Of a DNA stretch of 58,164 nt, positions 2,030 through 56,167 are shown in pieces. Location of the stretch: NCBI GenBank assembly GCA_000442015.1, contig KE560993.1, positions 1 to 58,164 of the forward strand, in the 5' to 3' direction. The notes below the pieces were generated by a model. The model had not been told where the DNA came from. It made no database searches and was given only the letters and a program-made list of their open reading frames with translations. A program made the position numbers and the translations under genes. Source of the DNA: Rozella allomycis CSF55 (Eukaryota). The stretch's first letter is position 1. Each line of letters opens with the position of its first letter.

Positions 2030-5000
2030 TTATTTCTTGACCTTTTTTGGAACACTAGTTTTACCTAGCTAAAAGAAATTCAAATTAATTACCTTCCAAT
2101 AAAATTCTCTTCTTTTCTTTTTCCTTTTCTTCTCTTCTAGTTTGTTCTTCTAGATCATCCCAATCCAATCCATCTTCATCTTCCTCATCCTCATCTTCTT
2201 CCGCATCGTCATCTTCATCAAACTCTTCATCATCGTCAAAATCTGATTCATTTGATTCAGACTCGTTGAACTGCTCATCGTTGAATTCAGAGCCAGATTC
2301 AGAAGACACGTGCTCTTCATCTTGCTGCTCAACATCATCGCCTCTAGCGAAATTCCAGCCGCCCATTTCATAGAAACCAATTGGATCTTCTTTGACTACT
2401 TTTAAGAGATTGTTCCAGTTAAAGTTGACGGGTGCTTCAGCATAGGCGACATCCATGGAATCTAGCCAATCTTTGATGTGTTCTAGACTATTCATTGGGA
2501 TTGAATTGATGTGCACTGGTTGAAGATTGTGATTCTTAAAGACAAACACTAGATCAAAGTTCTTTAATCCAAACTAGAATTTGAATAGAGTTGAATTGTT
2601 ACAGAAACTCTTTCTAACAATGCTAATTCAACATCAGGCAAAGTAACAACGAGAAAAGGAGTGTCTGTTAAATGAACGAGACATTCAGTTGTTGGTTGCA
2701 TTAAAACATTTTGTCTAAAAGGAACTCCATTAAAACCTTATTTTTAATTGAAAGTGTGTGATTACCTAATTATTAAATGATCATCTTTCAATTACCTATT
2801 CTTAAATCATCACCTTTTCAATTACCTATTCTTAAATTATCACCTTTTCAATTACCTAATTCTCTGAATGGAATGTCAACTTCAATGTTGGATTGCTCCA
2901 TAACCTTTTCAGCAAATTGCTTAAATTCAGAATTGATTCTCGCTCTTCTTTTTCTTTCTTCTTGTTCTTGAATCAATTCATCTTCATCAGCGTAATTGTT
3001 TCTTCTCTTTCCTCTACCGCCAGTTTCATCATAACTCAAATCAGTCACTTCTCTATAAAACTGTACATCCTTTTTTCAACATTAAAACTAGTTAATTACC
3101 TTTGTCTTCTTTTTACCAATTAGAATTGGATTCTTTAAATGAATATGAAGAATAGCAATCAATTCATTATCACACGGCTGAAAGAATAAATGTTTAATAT
3201 TAGAAAAGATTAAATCCAACTTGAAATCTCTCTTAACAAACGAAGTAAATCTCAACCCATTCGAATGAATTTCAATAGACCCCTCTGATCTCTTTCCATC
3301 AATTGGTCTCACATAAACATCTTTTAACACCAACAATTTATTTTTAGATTCAATTAGTTTCTCTTGCTCTACTAGATCAGCCATTTCCTTCTTTTCTGTT
3401 GCCTTCTTTGTTATCATTTTTCTCAACTCGTTGATATCTTTAAACACTTCTGTTAATCTAATAACATCACTAGACTTGAATGATATCGTTCTAATGTATT
3501 GCAACACAAACTCTTCAACGGAATTCTCATTCACTTCCTTTTTCACGGGAGTATTAAAATTTATTCTCAACAAAATCCCATCGCCTTCATCTGACTTTGT
3601 CGCATTCTTGATCGTTGAAATATGAAATGGAACTGCCAACCCATAAATTGGCAACACTACACTCTCTGCTCTCTTATCTACAAAGATCTTCAAATTAGAA
3701 ACTTCTCGAGGCAACAATGCTTCTCTCTTGTAACTCTCAAAATTATTCATCTCTTCAACAACCTTGTTATTCTCTGAATTATTCTTCTTGTACAAACTCA
3801 ACATCTCCTTGTTCAATCTCTCATGCAACTCATGCTGATGCTCCCTCCTCTTGTTCTCATTCAACTCCTCCTTTTCTTCAGTCCTCAACTTACTCCTCAA
3901 CACCTTCGTCTTTGACACTTGCTGCTTCTCTTCTTGCTCCCCAATCTCAAACGTTATCTCTTTCAGTCTCTTTGGTGCATCAGTCAATATTATAGGCTCA
4001 GTTGATGTCACCTTGATCGTATCAGCTACAAACAACGAATAATCTTTCTAATCCAAAACTAAATTCATTACTTTCTCCTTGAATCTCTAAATCTTGAAAT
4101 CCAATCGCTAAATTCAAAGTCATTCCACTAACAATTTCATTCTCATTCTTTCCATTAATCGTAAAATCTCCTTCTTTAAATTCTAAGCCAATCCCAAACC
4201 CAAAATTCTTCACCAATTTACTCTTCAATTCTGGTCTATTCTTTTCCACAAACTCAACCCCCTTCATGTAAACATCTTTAATTAAAACCCCATCTCTTAT
4301 CAACCCCAACACATATCGTTGCAATTCAATCAGAAATTCATAATTCTCTTCTTGCTCCTTTTTCGGATCAACAAAAAATGTTCTGCCCAAATTACTACAA
4401 TAACTTTTATAGCGAACTCCCATAAAACATATTATCGTCCCAAACTTCATTATATCAGAATTAGAAACCGCACTAGGCTTCAAATTATACTTGCCCCCAC
4501 TCTGTATAACTGGCGTATAGCAAATATCCAAATAGTTCTCATCAACCTCCTTGTTCAACCGCAACTTTTTCCTCTTCTTCTCATCCACAAAATACCCCTC
4601 AATGTTCCCACTAAAATCTTCATGCTTCACATTCCTCTCCTCATCAATTATTCTCATCAAATCATTCACAACATTATTCTTCATCGCTTCACTAACAACC
4701 TTGGCTGCTATACGCGTATTATTCTACTCTCATCTCTGCAACCACATTACCAATCCCTCTTCATCCTTCACTGCCAACACAGTCGATATCCCAAACGTCA
4801 CATCAACCCGTTCAAACTCTTTCATCTTCTCAACACACTTGCCATACACACGTCCACTAAACACATCCTTATTCAACATCCCAACTACCCTCTCTCACAT
4901 CACCCCTAGCATCTTACCCCATTCCTGCTCTTCTTCACATACCCAACAAACTCTTCAAATATCTCCTCCTCATTGCTCCCATCCTTGGCCCGCTTCAACA

Positions 5001-12500: not shown

Positions 12501-14064
12501 TTTTTAATATTTGGAAACATTGTTGCAAATCTGAAAATTCAGAAGTTGCCATTGCTTCATTTAAATCTGTTAAATTTATTATTTCAGTTAAAGAAAATTA
12601 TGATTTCATGCAGCCTCATTGGATTTCTTTTTATGAATGTTGGTTGGACATTTTATCGCACATTGCTAATACCCCCACCTACTCTCAAGATGTTGCTCTA
12701 CACGCTACAAGTCTTCTAGCTGACATTGCAAACAAATCTTCATCTTTTACATCAAATCAACTCGAATCTATTTTCAATCTAATCTACAAAATTCTATTGT
12801 TTCCTTTCGCTAATGAAATGGTCCTGGATGTAGAAATTCTATCTCCTCTCCAATCAACCCTAGTAGATCAATTGGAGAAATTAGAATCAAAATTCACTAC
12901 AATCATCACATCTTTTTATGTAAAATTGGGAGAATTAACATTTCTAAATTTAAACAAGGAACGTGGGAAATCTTCATTCATTTCTCTTTCTAGAAGAATG
13001 TTTACTAAATGTTTAACCCTGGTTTCTGAAAAATCAGATATCATTCATGATCAAATTCCATCAATTGTTCAGGTAATTTATTTCACTNTTTAATATTCTT
13101 TTTTAAAAGATGTATGAAATTGCTATCAAGTTGCATCATCAGTGTCCTACTGGGGCTGGGAAGACTCCTTTTTGGAAACATGCCATTGAATGCATTCAAA
13201 GCATTTTCAAGTCTTTATCAAATCCAAATGACAAAGGTTTATCTAATGAGAAAGTTTCATCTAATGATAAAGGGTTACCAAATGCAAATGACAACTTTGC
13301 TTGGCTGGCCATTGGAAAATGCATCAAATCAATCTATGAATCTCAATCTTCATTCAAAGAAAATACCTCCATCGACGACATTGAAAAAGACGAAGATTTC
13401 CTAGTTGATTTCACTGCAAATGTCATCAACACTATTCTTTCAATCAACCTACCAAAAGACTCTTTAGAACTAATAATCCAAGGCATTTACAAGGGTTCTC
13501 TCTTGTACAATGATCTATTCGTCATCAATCCAGCCTCCAATCAGCTAATCGGTCCAAAGCAGCCAGACTCTGTCTTGCCATGCGCCTGTCTGCGTGAAAA
13601 ATTAGCGTCTGTTTGTCTAGCAAATCTATTCACTCTCTGCTGCACCAAAACCTCTTTAACAAACCAAATCACCATCCCATTCCTCTTAAAACGATCAGAA
13701 TTCGTCTTAAAGTCCTTCATTGAACGGAAATCAGTTCTCAACCGGCATCCATTCGAAAGGTTTCCAAATAATTTCTTTTTTAGTAGGATCAGTCATGACG
13801 AGTTTTTATTTATTTTGAATGGACTGGCCAGGCTGGATTTGGAAGTGGGAATCATGCAGCCTGTGTCGCAAGGTAAGGTTGGTGGTTGATATTGATTTAG
13901 ATCCGGTGAAATTGAAGTTGCTGTCTGGAAGCAAGGCACATTTGTTTTATTTATACCCGCTGCTGTGCCAGTGTCTGAGATGCGATGATCATGCTATTAC
14001 CGAGGCGGTGCAAAAGTGTCTCGTTTTGTTGGGAAATGAAATGGGATTGGAAGATGCCATTTAG
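9549..14064 (+). CDS. MON2: Mon2 (Arf-GEF-like endosome/Golgi trafficking protein)
   Basis: LQSDLLALSNESRKK start, EVQLKVLQ, SFPCLQLICTDYL, LNISLTSIGLLWNVSD, RPEVRNSAIQTL, HHSRSTFEKQ, HLFYLYP. Confidence 0.93.
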
Positions 14065-21507: not shown

Positions 21508-23203
21508 TTAAGACTCTTGCACAGTCCATGGCAATTTTAGAATCTCCTTTGCTGTTGGGCGTGAGTTTGGTTCCCTTTTTTGCTAAAGGAGAAATTTAAT
21601 ACTTTTCAAAACATAAATTCATTATTTGCTTTAAGCTATCTGAAGCATTGTCTGGTATATCAGGGTGAACATGTTTCCCTAGCTTGAACATCACAGCCTC
21701 TTGTATACAGCCTGTCCATGGATGGTTAGCAGTAAGCATTTCTATCAATACACAACCAAAACTCCAAATGTCAGTCTTTGTGGTTATTGATCCTCTTAGA
21801 ACTTCCGGGGCCATCCAAAAAACAGTCCCTTGGATGGAATGTCTGGCTTTGGAGCTTGCACCCAATTGAAGACTTAGCCCAAAGTCGGATATTTTAACTT
21901 GGCCGTACTCATTCAATAGAAAATTGCCGCCTTTAATGTTTGAAGTTAAACTTCACAATAATACAGTAATTCCAATAAAACAAAAAGGATATCTCTATGA
22001 ATAATATTTTGTTCGTGTAGATAAGATAGACCTGAGAGCATTTGTCTTGCGAAATTCTTCATTAATAATTCTTCAAAGGGCCCGCAAGTATTCAACAAAC
22101 TAGCGATTGAACCACCGGGAACATATTCTAACAGAATATTCAGTTTAGTTTCATCTCTTGTGGCCCCTATACTATTAAAGATTATAAACTACCTAAATAT
22201 CTGACAATATTGTCATGTTTCAATGTTTTCAAAACCTCGATTTCTTTCTCCAATGACTCAACCTAAAATTTTAGAGACATTTATAAAGTACTGTCTTAGT
22301 CTTTTGAATACAAGAGTCATTGGATAAATCTACCGTCTTAACTGCCATGAGGGTTCCATTTTCTGCATTAAGACCCAAGTATACGTCTCCAAACGATCCT
22401 TTTCCGATTTGTTTGCCCATTATCCATTTTATTGGTTTACCTACGTTCTTTAGTTTGTCTGAATCAATGACGACGCCTGGGAAATAACTGTCTAGCTGGG
22501 AATTTATTAACTTTGATGGCGGCCGATTAACTGGTCTTAATTTTGAATCGATCATAAAATCATCATCTGCTTTGTTATATTTGGAAGCGGTTAAGTAAAT
22601 ATCCAACTTTATAGAGTCATTAGAAAAAATTAACATGTGTTTCCAATCTCTTTCTCTTAAGTTATGTATCACTACGCTAAGAAACTAATTGATGTTACTG
22701 CCATCCTTTCTCATTATAAAGAATTGAAATTCTTTTGGGAAACTCTGTTTCTCAAGCACTTTGTTTAACGTTTCGTGCAGGTCAGAGTAATGGTTTCGTT
22801 CATACTCAAGTTCAAAGGAACTCGAAAGGATTGGCTGCTTGGAATGCCTATAAAAATTGACATTTATCAACAATAATTATACCAAATAAGAATTACTTTT
22901 TCTTTTTCTAAAGGGTTTCGAGCTTACTTGGCCGTGAGTGTTCCAACTTTTGTATTTTTGATTTCACAATATTATCAGCCATTAAGTGTTTTATCTCACC
23001 CAAAATTCTAGCGCAATGACCAATTTTCGAGACACCTATTTCTTTCAAATAATCGTAATCTAGGTAAGGCAATACATCTCCATCAATCATGTGATCTACG
23101 ACAAAAATGCTTACTTAGGCATACTTTTAAAGCTGTTAATGTGCATTTCCATACCAATTGATGAAATCCAATCAGCGACTTGAGAGCAAGTCCAATTTCG
23201 CAT
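21508..23203 (-). CDS. STE11: Ste11/Byr2-like MAPKKK with an N-terminal SAM domain
   Basis: SAM ([10 protein letters not shown]...IDGDVL...[11 protein letters not shown]); kinase [43 protein letters not shown]. Confidence 0.88.
21940..21992 (-). other. Probable U12-type (minor) intron, 53 nt, AT-AA termini
   Basis: CAT AGA G|ATATCCTTTTT...GTTTAACTTCAA|AC ATT AAA restores HRDIK; no single GT-AG intron does. Confidence 0.75.
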
Positions 23204-24032: not shown

Positions 24033-25619
24033 TTATGTCGTTAATTTATTTAATAAAATGCTTAATGAGTCTTCAATTGATGAAACCTCTAAACATTTTG
24101 CCTTCACAGTGTTTACAATTTCCTTTTGACATTCATGCAATATAAATTACTCGGAAAAGTCTATCATTGTTTTCAAAGTACTCTGTGAACTCTTGAATGT
24201 AATTTAATACATTATGTCTATATGTAACTTCGTTAGGCCAAAAAGCTTTAAGCCAAAGTTGAAACCAGGGTATAACATATTTCCTAATACAAATTGGAAT
24301 CAAAGTTTGTTCGTAATCATCGCTAGAGGATGAACAAAATTGAAATAAATGAGAATACCATGCCATTGAATCAATTGGTTTATAGGTCTAGTTAATTAAG
24401 GCAGGAAAATTATACCATTAGAGGATTCAACGACAATAGTTCGTATTTGATGTAAAACTCCATTAGACCTGGAATATTATGAGAAAAATAAGCCGATTCG
24501 TATTTTTTGGGGTAATTAGTCTTGAATTCTTTCAGCAATTTAAGAAAACCAGTTGGAGATGAAAATTGTTCATCAACATTTTTAACGATTGAAGAGATAA
24601 ATTCAGGCTGAATTTTCTATTTGAATGATAAACTAAAATTACCAGAGTTGAATTTGTTTCTTCAATGCTGCTGGGGGAAATATTGTTCATTAAACTATTC
24701 AATGACGAAAATGCTTTTTCTATTTTAAAGCTCTATAATCTCTTTAATAGAATCTAATCACCTTTTCTTCAAAAAAGTCACACAAAGTGATAAAATAATT
24801 CCGCAGTTTTTGCATGAATTCGTATTCTTCAGCTTCTTGTGTAACTTGTTTTTGAAGATTTAAAGAATAGTCATTAATGAATTTAATCGAATCTTCCAAG
24901 TTGTTCAACTTGATCTTCTCTTCCTTTAGCTCTCGCCTGAAAGATTGAATATTCAATTCAGTTTCTTTTATGAAATCATCAAAATTGGCAATTTCATCAA
25001 ATTGCAACGAGATTTCTTCTCTTTTGCTCTTTATTAATTCTTCTGCATTGATTTTAGTGTTATCAACGCCTTTTCTGATTTGACTTAATTCCCATTCCTC
25101 TCGTGTCTCATCCTCGCTCATCCTTTCAATTGCAAATAATACCGTTACTCTTCATCATAAAATTCATTCTCTTCATATGCATTTAATGTGTTATCTTGCA
25201 CTCCATACTGAACATCTCCATTCAGAGAAATAAATTCTTCGTTCAAAGATCTCTTAAATTCCCGATTTTTCTTTGCCATTAAAATATCTTGGGAGTCTGG
25301 TATCGATGATTTGGTTTTCATGGTGGCATTCTGTTTTCTTTGAAGCAATATTTCCTTATAATATTCGCTTGTTTTATCGTCTTTGCTGTCATCTCTGTCA
25401 GTCTCTGGGAGGTTAACTATTTCATTGCGCTTCATTTTGAAAGAGGTCGTCGGTATCTCGTCCTGCTTCACATCAAAGAGAATTTCTTACTTGAACATCA
25501 AAGCTCACCTTCATCTTTTGTTGTCCAGTACCTGCTCTAGAATTTACAACAACTTCTTCTTCATCATCTGACACATTCTTTTTCCTTATATTTCCTCTCT
25601 TTGACCGTTTTGTGAACAT
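24033..25619 (-). CDS. GCFC2/PAXBP1/Ntr2-family spliceosome-disassembly factor
   Basis: MFTKRSKRGNIRKK start, IPDSQDILMAKKNRE, EFISL, EWELSQIRKG, FMQKLRNYFITLCDFFEEK, YESAY...P, MAWY. Confidence 0.8.
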
Positions 25620-41032: not shown

Positions 41033-42794
41033 TTAGCCTAGATGAACATTTTCCGGGTTGAACGTGAACCCTTGAAACTTTTTCTGCAACGTTTCGCTTA
41101 GATGAGATTGATTTACAAAGCTATCGGCTGGAACTTCTTTTGTAAACTCCTCGTCGAAATTGCTAGTGTCTTTATCAGAAACCTACGTTGATCCTAGAAA
41201 TGTGCATTACGACTTTAGGTTTGAAAGGAGGTTGATACTTCTTTTCATTCAACTTGTTCCAATCAATGTCTTTGAAAAATTCATGTTCCTTAATTTCATT
41301 TGCTCCATTCGCACCTAATCGCTGAAGAGGGTCTCGGCAAAGCAACTTTAATGAGTAAAACAAAGATATACCTTAGTTAATAATGATTTAGCACAAGAAC
41401 TGACGTTATCGGGAAATTCCAAAGGGCTTTTGAGAATTCGTTGGTACATTTCATTTGTATTCTCAGAATAGAATGGAGGAAGGCCTACTAACATTTCGTA
41501 CAAGAGTATGCCCAATGTCCACCAGTCAACCTTTTTTCATACATTACGTAAAATTACTGCCATTGTATATCCTTCTCCTTTCAAAACTTCAGGGGCTAAA
41601 TATTCTGGAGTGCCACAAAAAGTATTTGTTTTCTCACCCTTTTCCAAATTCAATTTGCATAATCCAAAATCGCAAAGAGCAATATGACCAGTGTAATCAA
41701 GAAGTATATTTTCTGGTTTCAAATCTATTTACATAACGGTAATGACTTACCCCTATGATATATAGAAGACCAATTTACCGGTATATTATGTTAAATCCGT
41801 GCAAGTGCTCTAATGCTGAAAGCAGTTCCGCGGTATAAAATTTTGCTCTGTCTTCACTGAACTGACCTTCATTTTGAAGATGATGAAATAACTCCCCACC
41901 ATTAATGAAAGCGAGAACAAGATACAATTTCTCTGGTGTTTGGAAAGAAAACTTTAAATTCACTACAAAGGGATTGTCGATTTTGGCGAGTACATTTCTT
42001 TCGGCCAATGTGTGTTCAACCTCATCCCTTTTTACAATATCAGCTTTTTTGATAATCTTCATGGCATATATACGACCGGTGTCCTTCTTGCGGACTTGCA
42101 TAACCTAGTATGAAATAACGGAAGTGCTACTTTCCCAAATGAACCTTTTCCTATGACTTTTAATAAATCAAACTGATCAATATTCAAAGTTTTTGTCTAT
42201 TTTTAATTTTTTCTTATTTTACTGAGGGTATTTGATAGTCTATTTGGATGTGCATTTCAATGGTCGTTGGCTCAGCATTGTTTCCACTCAACTTACACCA
42301 TTTATTCATTTTTAATTTCTAATTCATTTTAAAATCATATTAATACTTTTTCGTCCACATCAGGAATGAATGTTGTCGAGCCCAAAAAGAAGTCCCTGCC
42401 TTCACTATTTGGCGCATACAAAGAAATAACAATCTCTGTTAATCTACTTATATCGCTATAAATAAAAAACATGATGATTACAATGATGCCTTTTGGTTCC
42501 ATAGGGGGCAGTTGCTTGCCCAAGATGTAGCGTCTATAACAATATCATTCTTGTCAAAATCAATGACAGCATAAGGAATGCGATTTAAGTGCTCTTTCGG
42601 ATAATTTTTTACTTCAAGTATATGAATTATAATGACCCCGCCTTCGTGCACAGACTTTTCAAAGCGCATTCATATATTTACTTGAGGCCGCTTATTGAAA
42701 GGCGGAACTACATTTTCTTTATTTGGTGATTGTAATGAGTTCTTCTTTGCTATATTATTTCATCTTTGAACTCTTTACATTTGAAAAAGTTCAT
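41033..42794 (-). CDS. YPK1: Ypk1/Gad8-like AGC kinase with a C2-like N-terminus
   Basis: [87 protein letters not shown] hydrophobic motif. Confidence 0.95.
41751..41752 (-). other. 2-nt microexon (GG) between two 26-nt introns
   Basis: TAC CG|gtaaat..atcatag|GG|gtaagt..aaatag|AT TTG gives Y-R-D-L. Confidence 0.85.
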
Positions 42795-44170: not shown

Positions 44171-44874
44171 ATGTCTTCGTACGATAAAATGATTGTTTAG
44201 AGGTAGAACTGTACAAAAATTAGATAACTCGTGGACTTTTTGGTTTATGCACCGAAGTCCAACCGCTAAAAATTTAACATCTAGTTATGGGGACAATATT
44301 AAAAAAATTGCTTCTTTCGACACGGTATTAATAGTCTCTTGCTTTGAATTCAGGTAGAAGGGTTTTGGGGTGTATATTCACATTTAAAGAGAGCTACTGA
44401 AGTGCCCAACATTACCGAATACAATTTGTTTAAGTCGGGCATTAAACCCATGTGGGAGGTACAGCATTATTAATTTATTTAAAAAGGTAATAACTTTTTT
44501 TATTATTTATATAAAGGATACCGAAAACCAGAATGGTGGGAAGATTATGCTTCGGCTTCGAAAAGGTGTTGTCACGAGATTGTGGGAAAAGCTGGTATCA
44601 TTATAATTGCATGAAAACTAGATACTTGTTGTTATTGGTAGTCAAGACCATTTTGCTTCTGATATTTGTGGTTTAGTACTCTCTATTCGACAATTTGAAG
44701 ATATTATATCGGTGTGGAATAAGACATCTTCAGATAAAGATCTTATCCAAGATTTAAAGTAAATACTCTATAATAGCCTTAACAAGAAATAAATTAGCTG
44801 AGTTATTAGAGTTGCCCAGTGGGACAATTGTTGATTACAAAGTTCACAATTCTCACCACAAAGATCAAACATAA
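44171..44874 (+). CDS. EIF4E2: eIF4E family member, class II (4EHP/eIF4E2-like); absent from the ORF track
   Basis: Spliced LDNSWTFWF, SYGDNIKKIASFDT|VEGFWGVYSHL, FKSGIKPMWE|DTENQNGGK, RLRKG..RLWE, ICGLVLSIRQFEDIISVWNK, YKVH. Confidence 0.88.
44459..44516 (+). other. Composite 58-nt intron of two abutting GT..AG units (28+30 nt)
   Basis: TGG GAG|GTACAGCATTATTAATTTATTTAAAAAG|GTAATAACTTTTTTTATTATTTATATAAAG|GAT restores WE-D. Confidence 0.85.
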
Positions 44875-54352: not shown

Positions 54353-56167
54353 TTAGTCCTCATTTCCATCGTTTTCTGCAAATTGGTTTTTGTCACTTAA
54401 AGCAAACAGTTTATTCTTACAGTTGTGAATTTTAATGAGAATTGAATTTTCCAAAGAATAATGTTTATAATTTTTCTTTGCTAGTTTTAAATGTTCTGCA
54501 GCCAACTCGAATTGCCCTTTACTCATGCAAAATTTGGCGAATTCCATGTGTGCCACAGGAGCCATCCAATGATCAAATTTTATTGCGCTTTCTTGGTCGA
54601 AAAACTGTTGAAATAATTTGCCGGCATCTTCTTGTGGTGTTTTAATGAACCTTGCGATAATTGCCTTTACCAATACAGATAGGCAAATGTCATCATAAGT
54701 TAACTGAACCCCGGATGTTATCTCATTATTAATCATATCCCAACATTGTTGTAATTTCTCTTGCGACATCCTCGAGAAACCATTCCAAAGGACTAAGAAT
54801 TCAAAAACAGGAAAGAATAGGCGATTACATTGAGCAGAAAATGTTCTTGCTTTTCTTGCGACAAATTTCTCTATTGGAATTGACTTTCCTGCTATTTTTC
54901 TTGTTAAATTTGCAATCGAGCCCATGAGTTCTTTTATTTTGTCCATTTGGCCGGAATCGTTTTGCATGTATTTAGAAATGGCGAGAAAATAAGTATAGCT
55001 TGCTTTCGACCATTTATTATCTCGTACAAGTAACGCAAAGTATTTTTCCGCTTCTGAAAATTCCAATTCATGAAATGAACAAACTGCCATTTCCCAATAA
55101 CATATATGATGCAGTTGAATCCATTCAGACTGAGATGCAATTGATTTTTCATACTCACGTTTGGCATGTTTAAAGCATCCTTTAGAAAAGGATAACCTTC
55201 CGCTGAAAAATAGAAAAAGGGAGCTGTTAGGATATAAAGTTAATGATTTGTTTAGAATAGCTTGAGCTGTATTCAAATCGTAATCATGCAATTGTAAGTG
55301 AGGTCCAATAACGGTATGAAACAACAGCAATCCCAAGGAACAAAATTCGGCCCGAAGACCACCTTTTTCGCTCGCTGACTCTAACAAAGACAGTCCATAT
55401 TTTCTGTCGCCTGAAAATCCAATTATTTCAAAAATTTTCAAAACTTTAGAGGGTAACAAAGATAACATCACGTTGAACATTCCCAATCCAAAGGACACCC
55501 CTGAAATAAAATGTATATCAAATTGTTCAATTAAGCCTTTGGATTTTGCCAAACTTAATAATTCATTTGAAGCTTTGTACGTAAAATAACTGTTCCTAAT
55601 ATTAACACCTTCCTTCACAAATGTCATTAAACCATTCCCATCGTCGGCCAACAATGTCAACATTGCCCTCACGATAAATATTTCTGAATGTATCAGCTCT
55701 GCATGTCTTTGCATTGTGCTCATCTTTTTCATATTGTGAACACTTTGCCCCATGACTTGCCTAGTGAGTCCTCCAATAAACCCGCCCTTGTATCTTTCGT
55801 TTTCTGCTTGGTCAACAGTAGTTTTCATCACCTGCAGTGCTTTTTGAATGTCCTTTGGATCAAATGTCATCAGAGATTTTATAAACAGGATAACCGAATA
55901 TCCTATCGAATGAAACAATGAATTAGCGAAATTCTTCTCTAGTATTTCTTCTCCTTCATTGAAACGTGAGTTTAGAAACAATTTGACACATTCTTCAACC
56001 TGTAAAATTGCAAGTTCAGTCAAACTCCAGTCAGCTTCAAAAGTATTAACATAAATTGGAGAGCTTAAGGTTGACGACAATTCAGTCTCAACAGCGTCTT
56101 GGAATTCATCATTGCTTTCGTCGGCATCACTAGACATATTAAGGAATTTTCCGATTAGCGTTTTCAT
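54353..56167 (-). CDS. IML2: Iml2/TTC39-family TPR protein, intronless
   Basis: LFLNSRF, HAELIHSE, SGVSFGLGMFNVMLSLLP...GFSGDR, YPNSSLFLFF, HICYWE, WSKASY, GKSIPIEKF, YSLEN. Confidence 0.9.
   Translation of the reverse strand: MKTLIGKFLNMSSDADESNDEFQDAVETELSSTLSSPIYVNTFEADWSLTELAILQVEECVKLFLNSRFNEGEEILEKNFANSLFHSIGYSVILFIKSLMTFDPKDIQKALQVMKTTVDQAENERYKGGFIGGLTRQVMGQSVHNMKKMSTMQRHAELIHSEIFIVRAMLTLLADDGNGLMTFVKEGVNIRNSYFTYKASNELLSLAKSKGLIEQFDIHFISGVSFGLGMFNVMLSLLPSKVLKIFEIIGFSGDRKYGLSLLESASEKGGLRAEFCSLGLLLFHTVIGPHLQLHDYDLNTAQAILNKSLTLYPNSSLFLFFSGRLSFSKGCFKHAKREYEKSIASQSEWIQLHHICYWEMAVCSFHELEFSEAEKYFALLVRDNKWSKASYTYFLAISKYMQNDSGQMDKIKELMGSIANLTRKIAGKSIPIEKFVARKARTFSAQCNRLFFPVFEFLVLWNGFSRMSQEKLQQCWDMINNEITSGVQLTYDDICLSVLVKAIIARFIKTPQEDAGKLFQQFFDQESAIKFDHWMAPVAHMEFAKFCMSKGQFELAAEHLKLAKKNYKHYSLENSILIKIHNCKNKLFALSDKNQFAENDGNED

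Follow-up and report, generated by a model that had tools for sequence, protein, structure and literature searches.

Can two nucleotides serve as an exon? The question is raised by a protein kinase gene of Rozella allomycis CSF55, in which two very short GT–AG introns appear to be separated by nothing but the dinucleotide GG, within the codons of the catalytic loop. Here, we analyse this junction in a stretch of 58,164 nucleotides (contig KE560993.1 of assembly GCA_000442015.1, positions 1 to 58,164; hereafter the window), and weigh a 2-nt exon against the other ways in which the same letters could be spliced.

The kinase gene and its catalytic-loop junction

The gene is carried on the minus strand, and its features are as follows.

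41033 to 42669, minus strand: coding region of an AGC protein kinase, with 10 exons and 9 introns of 26–28 nt; start codon ATG at 42669, stop codon TAA at 41033
42105 to 42130, minus strand: intron 4, 26 nt, which splits the glycine-rich loop (GKGSFGK|V)
41779 to 42104, minus strand: exon 5, 326 nt, encoding VMQVRKK...HGFNIIY and ending with CG of the Arg codon; protein kinase (Pkinase) profile positions 15–122
41753 to 41778, minus strand: intron 5, 26 nt, GTAAAT...CATAG, in phase 2 inside the Arg codon of YRD
41751 to 41752, minus strand: the predicted 2-nt exon GG, which completes the Arg codon CGG and opens the catalytic Asp codon GAT
41725 to 41750, minus strand: intron 6, 26 nt, GTAAGT...AAATAG, in phase 1 inside the Asp codon
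41558 to 41724, minus strand: exon 7, 167 nt, beginning with AT of the Asp codon and ending ...GYTMA; Pkinase profile positions 124–175
42456 to 42481, 42319 to 42346, 42197 to 42222, 41531 to 41557, 41346 to 41371 and 41183 to 41210, minus strand: the other introns of the kinase gene

When the nine introns are removed, the reading frame runs uninterrupted from ATG to TAA over 1398 nt (465 aa), and the terminal TAA fits the standard genetic code. The translation contains the motifs GKGSFGK, YRDLKPEN, DFG and PEYLAPE and a C-terminal FQGFTF. Matches to Pfam PF00069 are found on three exons (E = 2e-25 for profile positions 15–122, 2e-16 for 124–175 and 5e-08 for 178–241), and Pfam, the translation and the alignment together establish that a protein kinase domain with a catalytic loop, a DFG motif and an APE motif is present. 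The C-terminus reads ...TSNFDEEFT...FQGFTF..., which may represent the turn and hydrophobic motifs of an AGC tail; the short C-terminal exon that was submitted to Pfam gave no match there. Compared with 11 selected homologues, the protein is 59–73% identical to 10 and 52% identical to the eleventh (P0005), which is a truncated open reading frame (ORF) ending just after IIYR. The catalytic-loop region aligns without a gap to the 10 others.

The initial annotation called this kinase Ypk1. The protein appears to be an AGC kinase of the Ypk1/Gad8/SGK type, and the name Ypk1 is approximate: among named sequences, exon 5 finds its best matches in kinases of chytrids, aphelids and other early-diverging fungi, named as Gad8, AGC/AKT and SGK, at no more than 85% identity. 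'Ypk1-like AGC kinase' is a fair label for the sequence as read. In other fungi, kinases of the Ypk1/Gad8/SGK type take their signal from TOR complex 2, which acts upstream of them. Among public proteins of 59–2000 aa, none matched exon 5 at more than 91% identity in a search whose method cannot prove absence, and because of this the kinase may be absent from, mis-modelled in or unannotated in the public Rozella gene sets. A central growth-control kinase may thus be lost to comparative studies of microsporidian origins that use these gene sets. Elsewhere in the window, an intronless ORF of the Iml2/TTC39 family (54353–56167) matches a named Rozella allomycis CSF55 protein with 100% identity across 98% of the ORF. 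One metatranscriptome bearing the same species label gave six short fragments with 90–95% identity at 41588–41630; these come from other organisms and cover a conserved stretch about 100 nt from the junction.

Read on the minus strand from 41800 to 41700, the junction consists of an exon end (...ATA TAC CG), a 26-nt GT...AG segment, GG, a second 26-nt GT...AG segment, and then ATTTGAAACCAGAA. The initial annotation had proposed two 26-nt GT–AG introns at 41778–41753 and 41750–41725 flanking GG, and both the coordinates and the lengths are exact. If GG is kept, the message reads TAC CGG GAT TTG AAA CCA GAA (Y R D L K P E), the first four codons of which (YRDL) had also been proposed; this follows directly from the letters, and the product is gap-free against homologues across the junction. 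Each alternative GT–AG outcome disrupts the frame. Excision of all 54 nt as a single GT–AG intron gives TAC CGA TTT GAA, with a stop a few codons later, which agrees with the frameshift (CGA TTT) that had been predicted; retention of intron 5 gives CGG TAA, and retention of intron 6 brings in the TAG at its end. The Pfam profile leads to the same place: between exons 5 and 7, the sole Pkinase position left uncovered is 123, the catalytic Asp. Since exon 5 ends at profile position 122 and exon 7 starts at 124, exactly one residue, this Asp, is left for the split codon to supply. At the junction itself lies a run of four G (41750–41753), and no other number of G would preserve the frame. The GG thus has the features of an ultra-short microexon, with canonical GT...AG introns on both sides and, under GT–AG rules, a need for it both in keeping the frame and in supplying a conserved residue.

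Splice routes and intron sizes

The splice routes open to the junction were enumerated in full: every single removal with any terminal dinucleotides, and every two-step removal of GT–AG introns of at least 15 nt each, that yields TAC CGN GAT TTG. Only one two-step solution exists, namely the two side-by-side 26-nt GT–AG introns, taken in either order. The one-step solutions are two, a 52-nt GT..AT removal (giving CGA) and a 52-nt TA..TA removal (giving CGG); the single GT–AG intron across both halves is not among the removals that restore the frame. The earlier description of the GG as apparently obligatory is therefore upheld under the GT–AG rule and has to be relaxed beyond it, as the 52-nt GT..AT excision gives the same protein with CGA in place of CGG. 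No nested GT–AG route occurs among the two-step removals, and neither intron interrupts a splice element of the other, which is the arrangement that defines a stwintron.

To score the two introns, we used a leave-one-out weight matrix derived from the remaining 110 introns inferred in the window. Intron 5 scores 13.89 bits, above 85% of these, and intron 6 scores 15.86 bits, above 95%. Both exceed 13.10 bits, the 95th percentile of 258 GTA..AG decoys of 26–29 nt from the same window. By our own arithmetic, the chance that a decoy this good would lie within 0–5 nt of a real intron is about 7 in 10,000. The pairing of intron, GG and intron is more than chance and, as the letters stand and under normal splice-site rules, a 2-nt exon is the only workable reading.

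The scores were placed against the intron population of the window, which was described from gene models consisting of the longest stop-free path on each strand of the 58 kb, with fixed-cost jumps over GTA...AG segments of 22–34 nt. This yielded 42 fragments with 112 introns, all of 22–31 nt, 99 of them between 26 and 29 nt. By length, there are three of 22–24 nt, two of 25 nt, 34 of 26 nt, 18 of 27 nt, 31 of 28 nt, 16 of 29 nt, five of 30 nt and three of 31 nt; lengths of 32–34 nt were allowed and none was used. These figures describe ad hoc models of a single 58-kb window and GTA-start introns of 22–34 nt with AG ends. A model-free count points the same way, as GTA...TAG pairs number 31, 30 and 38 at spacings of 26, 27 and 28 nt, against about 16 at other spacings. 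Among the artefacts of the census, one 'intron' overlaps the start codon of the kinase, and introns starting with GTG are missed. The 17 short gaps between neighbouring fragments on the same strand were also inspected, and none clearly required a longer intron: two hold GTG-start mini-introns, two are related to N positions (one of them a 37-nt stretch with an N) and the rest look intergenic.

The two GTG-start mini-introns, at 24733–24761 (29 nt) and 21931–21956 (26 nt), both on the minus strand, broke the GTA-only models at those points. The 37-nt stretch is an apparent intron of a Mon2-like gene on the plus strand (13073–13109), and would be the longest in the window if its length is real. 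The window as a whole is very compact, with many neighbouring gene models only about 50–250 nt apart, and intron density in the gene models is roughly 2.8 per kb of coding sequence; a density of 2.5 per kb appears in the portion of a published account that we consulted (PMC8476143). In the part consulted of another, two Rozella S23 introns are called 'short (~30 nt)' (PMC6349667), and in Quandt et al. 2017, searched for Rozella intron length, the word 'intron' is absent. Two other designs for the census were discarded. A design in which each intron had to be flanked by 35 open codons on either side proved too noisy and produced nested false candidates, and a path search that allowed any GT–AG segment of 15–150 nt ran through the whole window, so that the restricted GTA model was used instead. 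In-frame stops are found in all 24 introns of 3n length, a count that was set aside as evidence because it follows from how the models were built.

Taken with these data, the junction is best explained by a real, constitutive 2-nt exon between two independent spliceosomal mini-introns of 26 nt, and on the sequence we hold this reading to be probable. Each mini-intron would be recognized across itself (intron definition), in the same manner as the other introns of about 26–29 nt in this genome. No more than about 15 nt separate the donor of intron 6 from the acceptor of intron 5 and its probable branch region; given this proximity, the two could not be handled at once, and we infer that they are spliced out one after the other, in either order, with the unspliced intron acting as the flanking 'exon' for its neighbour. 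Whichever intron went first, what is left would be a normal substrate for the second splicing event. Only the removal of both would give TAC CGG GAT TTG and an active catalytic loop.

Three other readings have to be weighed against this one. The first is that two routes coexist, such that splicing occasionally links the outer GT at 41778 to the outer AG at 41725, skips the GG and yields a frameshifted mRNA that is quickly degraded; under this reading, the intron pair would serve as a leak, or regulatory valve, on expression of the kinase. The outer sites are good (8.70 bits for the donor of intron 5 and 7.33 bits for the acceptor of intron 6) and microexons in other organisms are described as prone to skipping in the text available to us (PMC4674806), but the resulting 54-nt intron would be about twice the length of any inferred in the window, and we regard such coexistence as unlikely.

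The second reading is a single non-canonical intron of 52 nt (41778–41727) with GT..AT ends, which would give TAC CGA GAT TTG and make the internal AG-GG-GT irrelevant. Protein conservation cannot discriminate here, because this excision yields the same protein; apart from it, the TA..TA removal is the sole single-step route that brings back both the frame and YRD, and the GT..AT intron starts from the same good 5' site (8.70 bits). Its 3' end, however, scores −2.95 bits, against +5.2 at the AG of intron 5 and +7.3 at that of intron 6, and its 52 nt are far beyond the 22–31 nt of all 112 inferred introns, every one of which ends in AG, albeit in a search that required AG. It also offers no account of the two sites in its interior, a 3' site of top rank and a 5' site with a perfect GTAAGT, placed exactly 26 nt from either end. 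The other one-step removal, TA..TA, has ends scoring −8.0 and −9.6 bits. We therefore consider a GT..AT intron quite improbable, more so than occasional skipping of the GG.

The third and weakest reading, that the locus is a decaying copy or carries an assembly error in its G run and that the microexon is accidental, could appeal to the four-G homopolymer at the junction and to the want of any public annotated protein more than 91% identical to exon 5 in the lengths searched, but is hardly credible for a gene in which ten open exons join in frame into 465 aa with every kinase motif intact, the identity to homologues is as high as noted above (59–73% for 10 of the 11 selected, 52% for the truncated P0005), the four G are the exact count needed for the frame and both pairs of splice sites are of top quality.

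Origin of the two introns

Related loci bear on which of the two introns is the older. We compared 80 related metagenome loci with 72–77% identity, a set in which the best locus is 77% identical and which includes no close relative. The junction is intronless in 70, and the remaining 10 each have a single intron of 57–95 nt, placed as CG|GT...AG|N-GAY, exactly where Rozella has intron 5. In none of the 80 is the Asp codon split after its G, as it is by Rozella intron 6.

Homologous ORFs show the same break point. Among 120 longer ORFs listed, four end at ...YR, and in P0005 and P0011 the translation turns non-homologous right after YR. Among 120 short ORFs listed, 30 end at ...YR, 65 lack a contiguous YRDLKP and 25 carry it contiguously; of the 65, the 56 that were listed lose their homology immediately after YR, where their residues decode as G-T-N-N. 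One of the short ORFs, P0241, has 108 aa and is 91% identical, which makes it a candidate for the same locus in another Rozella or rozellid genome. The 57–95-nt GT...AG intron after CG of the Arg codon of YRD is thus shared by diverse fungal-like metagenome contigs, namely 10 of the 11 loci L001–L011. The upstream exon boundary at GK|V is apparently shared too, as eight ORFs of the 108-aa type start with MQVR.

The position of intron 5 is, on this comparison of loci, old. Because that position is shared with relatives and the position of intron 6 is not, we infer that the 2-nt exon was most likely born when the Rozella lineage gained mini-intron 6, 2 nt downstream of intron 5. Two sources within the gene were tried for the new intron and rejected. 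A duplication of the upstream exon together with intron 5 gave a similarity that is not significant (1414 of 2000 shuffles reach the score), and the same is true of an origin from the downstream exon (225 of 2000 shuffles). Intron 6 has no significant similarity to the other introns, and Tandem Repeats Finder (TRF) reported no repeat at 41600–41900.

Tandem introns and other microexons

The kind of exon proposed here is already known, as exons of a single nucleotide have been published for Arabidopsis and Fusarium; the comparisons that follow draw on those parts of the cited papers that were available to us. In Arabidopsis, APC11 has a constitutive single-nucleotide exon, which was shown by reporter constructs and RT-PCR (Guo and Liu 2015, PMC4674806). 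As in APC11, the Rozella exon is shorter than a codon, sits between two GT–AG introns, is needed if a conserved protein is to stay in frame and seems to have escaped annotation. It differs in being 2 nt rather than 1 nt, in being known from sequence rather than by experiment in a plant, and in having flanking introns of 26 nt. A fungal parallel is offered by the CYP621A P450 genes of Fusarium, in which a single-nucleotide exon has the backing of 20 orthologues and of RNA reads from public data (Nelson and Syed 2026, PMC12940212). In both cases the microexon contributes to a codon within a highly conserved motif, its omission breaks the phase and annotation is prone to miss it, but the Rozella case is read from genomic letters, in a genome with uniformly tiny introns.

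Uniformly tiny introns are found in several other lineages, including Paramecium and Nyctotherus, with introns of about 25 nt (PMC5014332, PMC2633312), and myxozoans (median 22–27 bp) and Dicyema (PMC13644364). The introns of the Rozella window resemble these in their narrow length range, a peak below 30 nt and weak internal signals, although the lineages differ. Microsporidia are also among the tiny-intron lineages. In the portions consulted of the accounts of Paramecium, Nyctotherus, myxozoans, Dicyema and Rozella S23, no microexon between tiny introns is described. What is new here is the setting: the predicted microexon has a minimal intron on each side, the genome seemingly uses introns of no other size, and zero-length exons occur beside it.

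The zero-length exons lie in a second gene of the window, identified as SPT16 by Pfam matches.

2737 to 2855, minus strand: SPT16 tandem array of four head-to-tail GT–AG units of 30, 30, 30 and 29 nt, with three zero-length exons

The exons on either side of the array abut in solved SPT16 chains, at residues 822/824 of 7xsx_j and 173/175 of 4kho_A, and so the whole 119 nt must be removed. The zero-length exons on which the initial annotation had drawn correspond to the junctions between these units. The first three units form a 30-nt tandem repeat (period 30, 3.4 copies, 90% matches by TRF), which suggests duplication of an intron in place. At each junction AG and GT are juxtaposed (AG|GT), and the mRNA would be alike whether one 119-nt segment or four small ones were excised. 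Given the narrow range of intron lengths in the window, a chain of mini-introns appears the more natural reading than a single intron of 119 nt.

Such junctions recall recursive splicing. Drosophila Ubx is an example of this process. Recursive splicing takes place at zero-length exons, where juxtaposed AG|GT 'ratchet' sites divide the long introns of animals (PMC5126111, PMC4482092). According to the portions of these papers available to us, the likeness lies in 3' and 5' sites that abut or nearly do so, exactly as AG|GT in SPT16 at 2737–2855; but recursive splicing subdivides very long introns, whereas the Rozella units are of about 26–30 nt, seemingly the only intron size in use. The kinase GG differs further from zero-length recursive exons, as its 2 nt would be retained in the predicted mRNA. 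The stwintrons of filamentous fungi likewise place two U2-type introns in one short region for consecutive removal (PMC8469720). In those, as described in the part consulted, one intron is nested in the other and breaks up one of its splice signals; the Rozella introns lie side by side.

The initial annotation had gone on to infer that intron definition is pure and that exons have no lower size limit. In its strong form, this would mean that the Rozella spliceosome accepts only introns of about 22–31 nt, that these are recognized purely by intron definition and that no exon is needed between them, a proposal that we regard as possible but doubtful. If it were true, any longer intervening sequence would have to be a chain of mini-introns, separated by exons that measure 0 nt in SPT16 and 2 nt in the kinase, and about 15 nt would have to hold a branch site together with a 3' site and the 5' site that follows it. 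Tandem duplication, or insertion of a mini-intron close to another, would be nearly neutral. Rozella would then be a natural system in which to study the birth of introns and the limits of spliceosome assembly.

Should transcripts confirm the kinase exon, it would be one of very few sub-codon exons and, as far as the literature searched shows, the first described between introns of minimal size. The unit of intron, exon and intron measures 54 nt, which makes it a compact natural substrate for questions of splice-site separation and order of use. This is less than the footprint usually ascribed to one spliceosome. Together, the kinase pair and the SPT16 array hint at how new introns arise in a genome of fixed intron size.

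The window was also scanned over its 58 kb for AG-N-GT tandems with exons of 0–12 nt, along the lines of a search that the initial annotation had put forward. The kinase pair emerged as the only candidate with two canonical halves; most of the 65 candidates of one scan, and of the 27 of the next, did not hold up as pairs, being explained by one ordinary intron with other boundaries. In the restricted gene models, exons shorter than 18 nt occur at just two loci, the kinase and SPT16, and the next smallest internal exons are of 18, 34 and 49 nt. The predicted 18-nt internal exon lies on the plus strand at 44354–44371.
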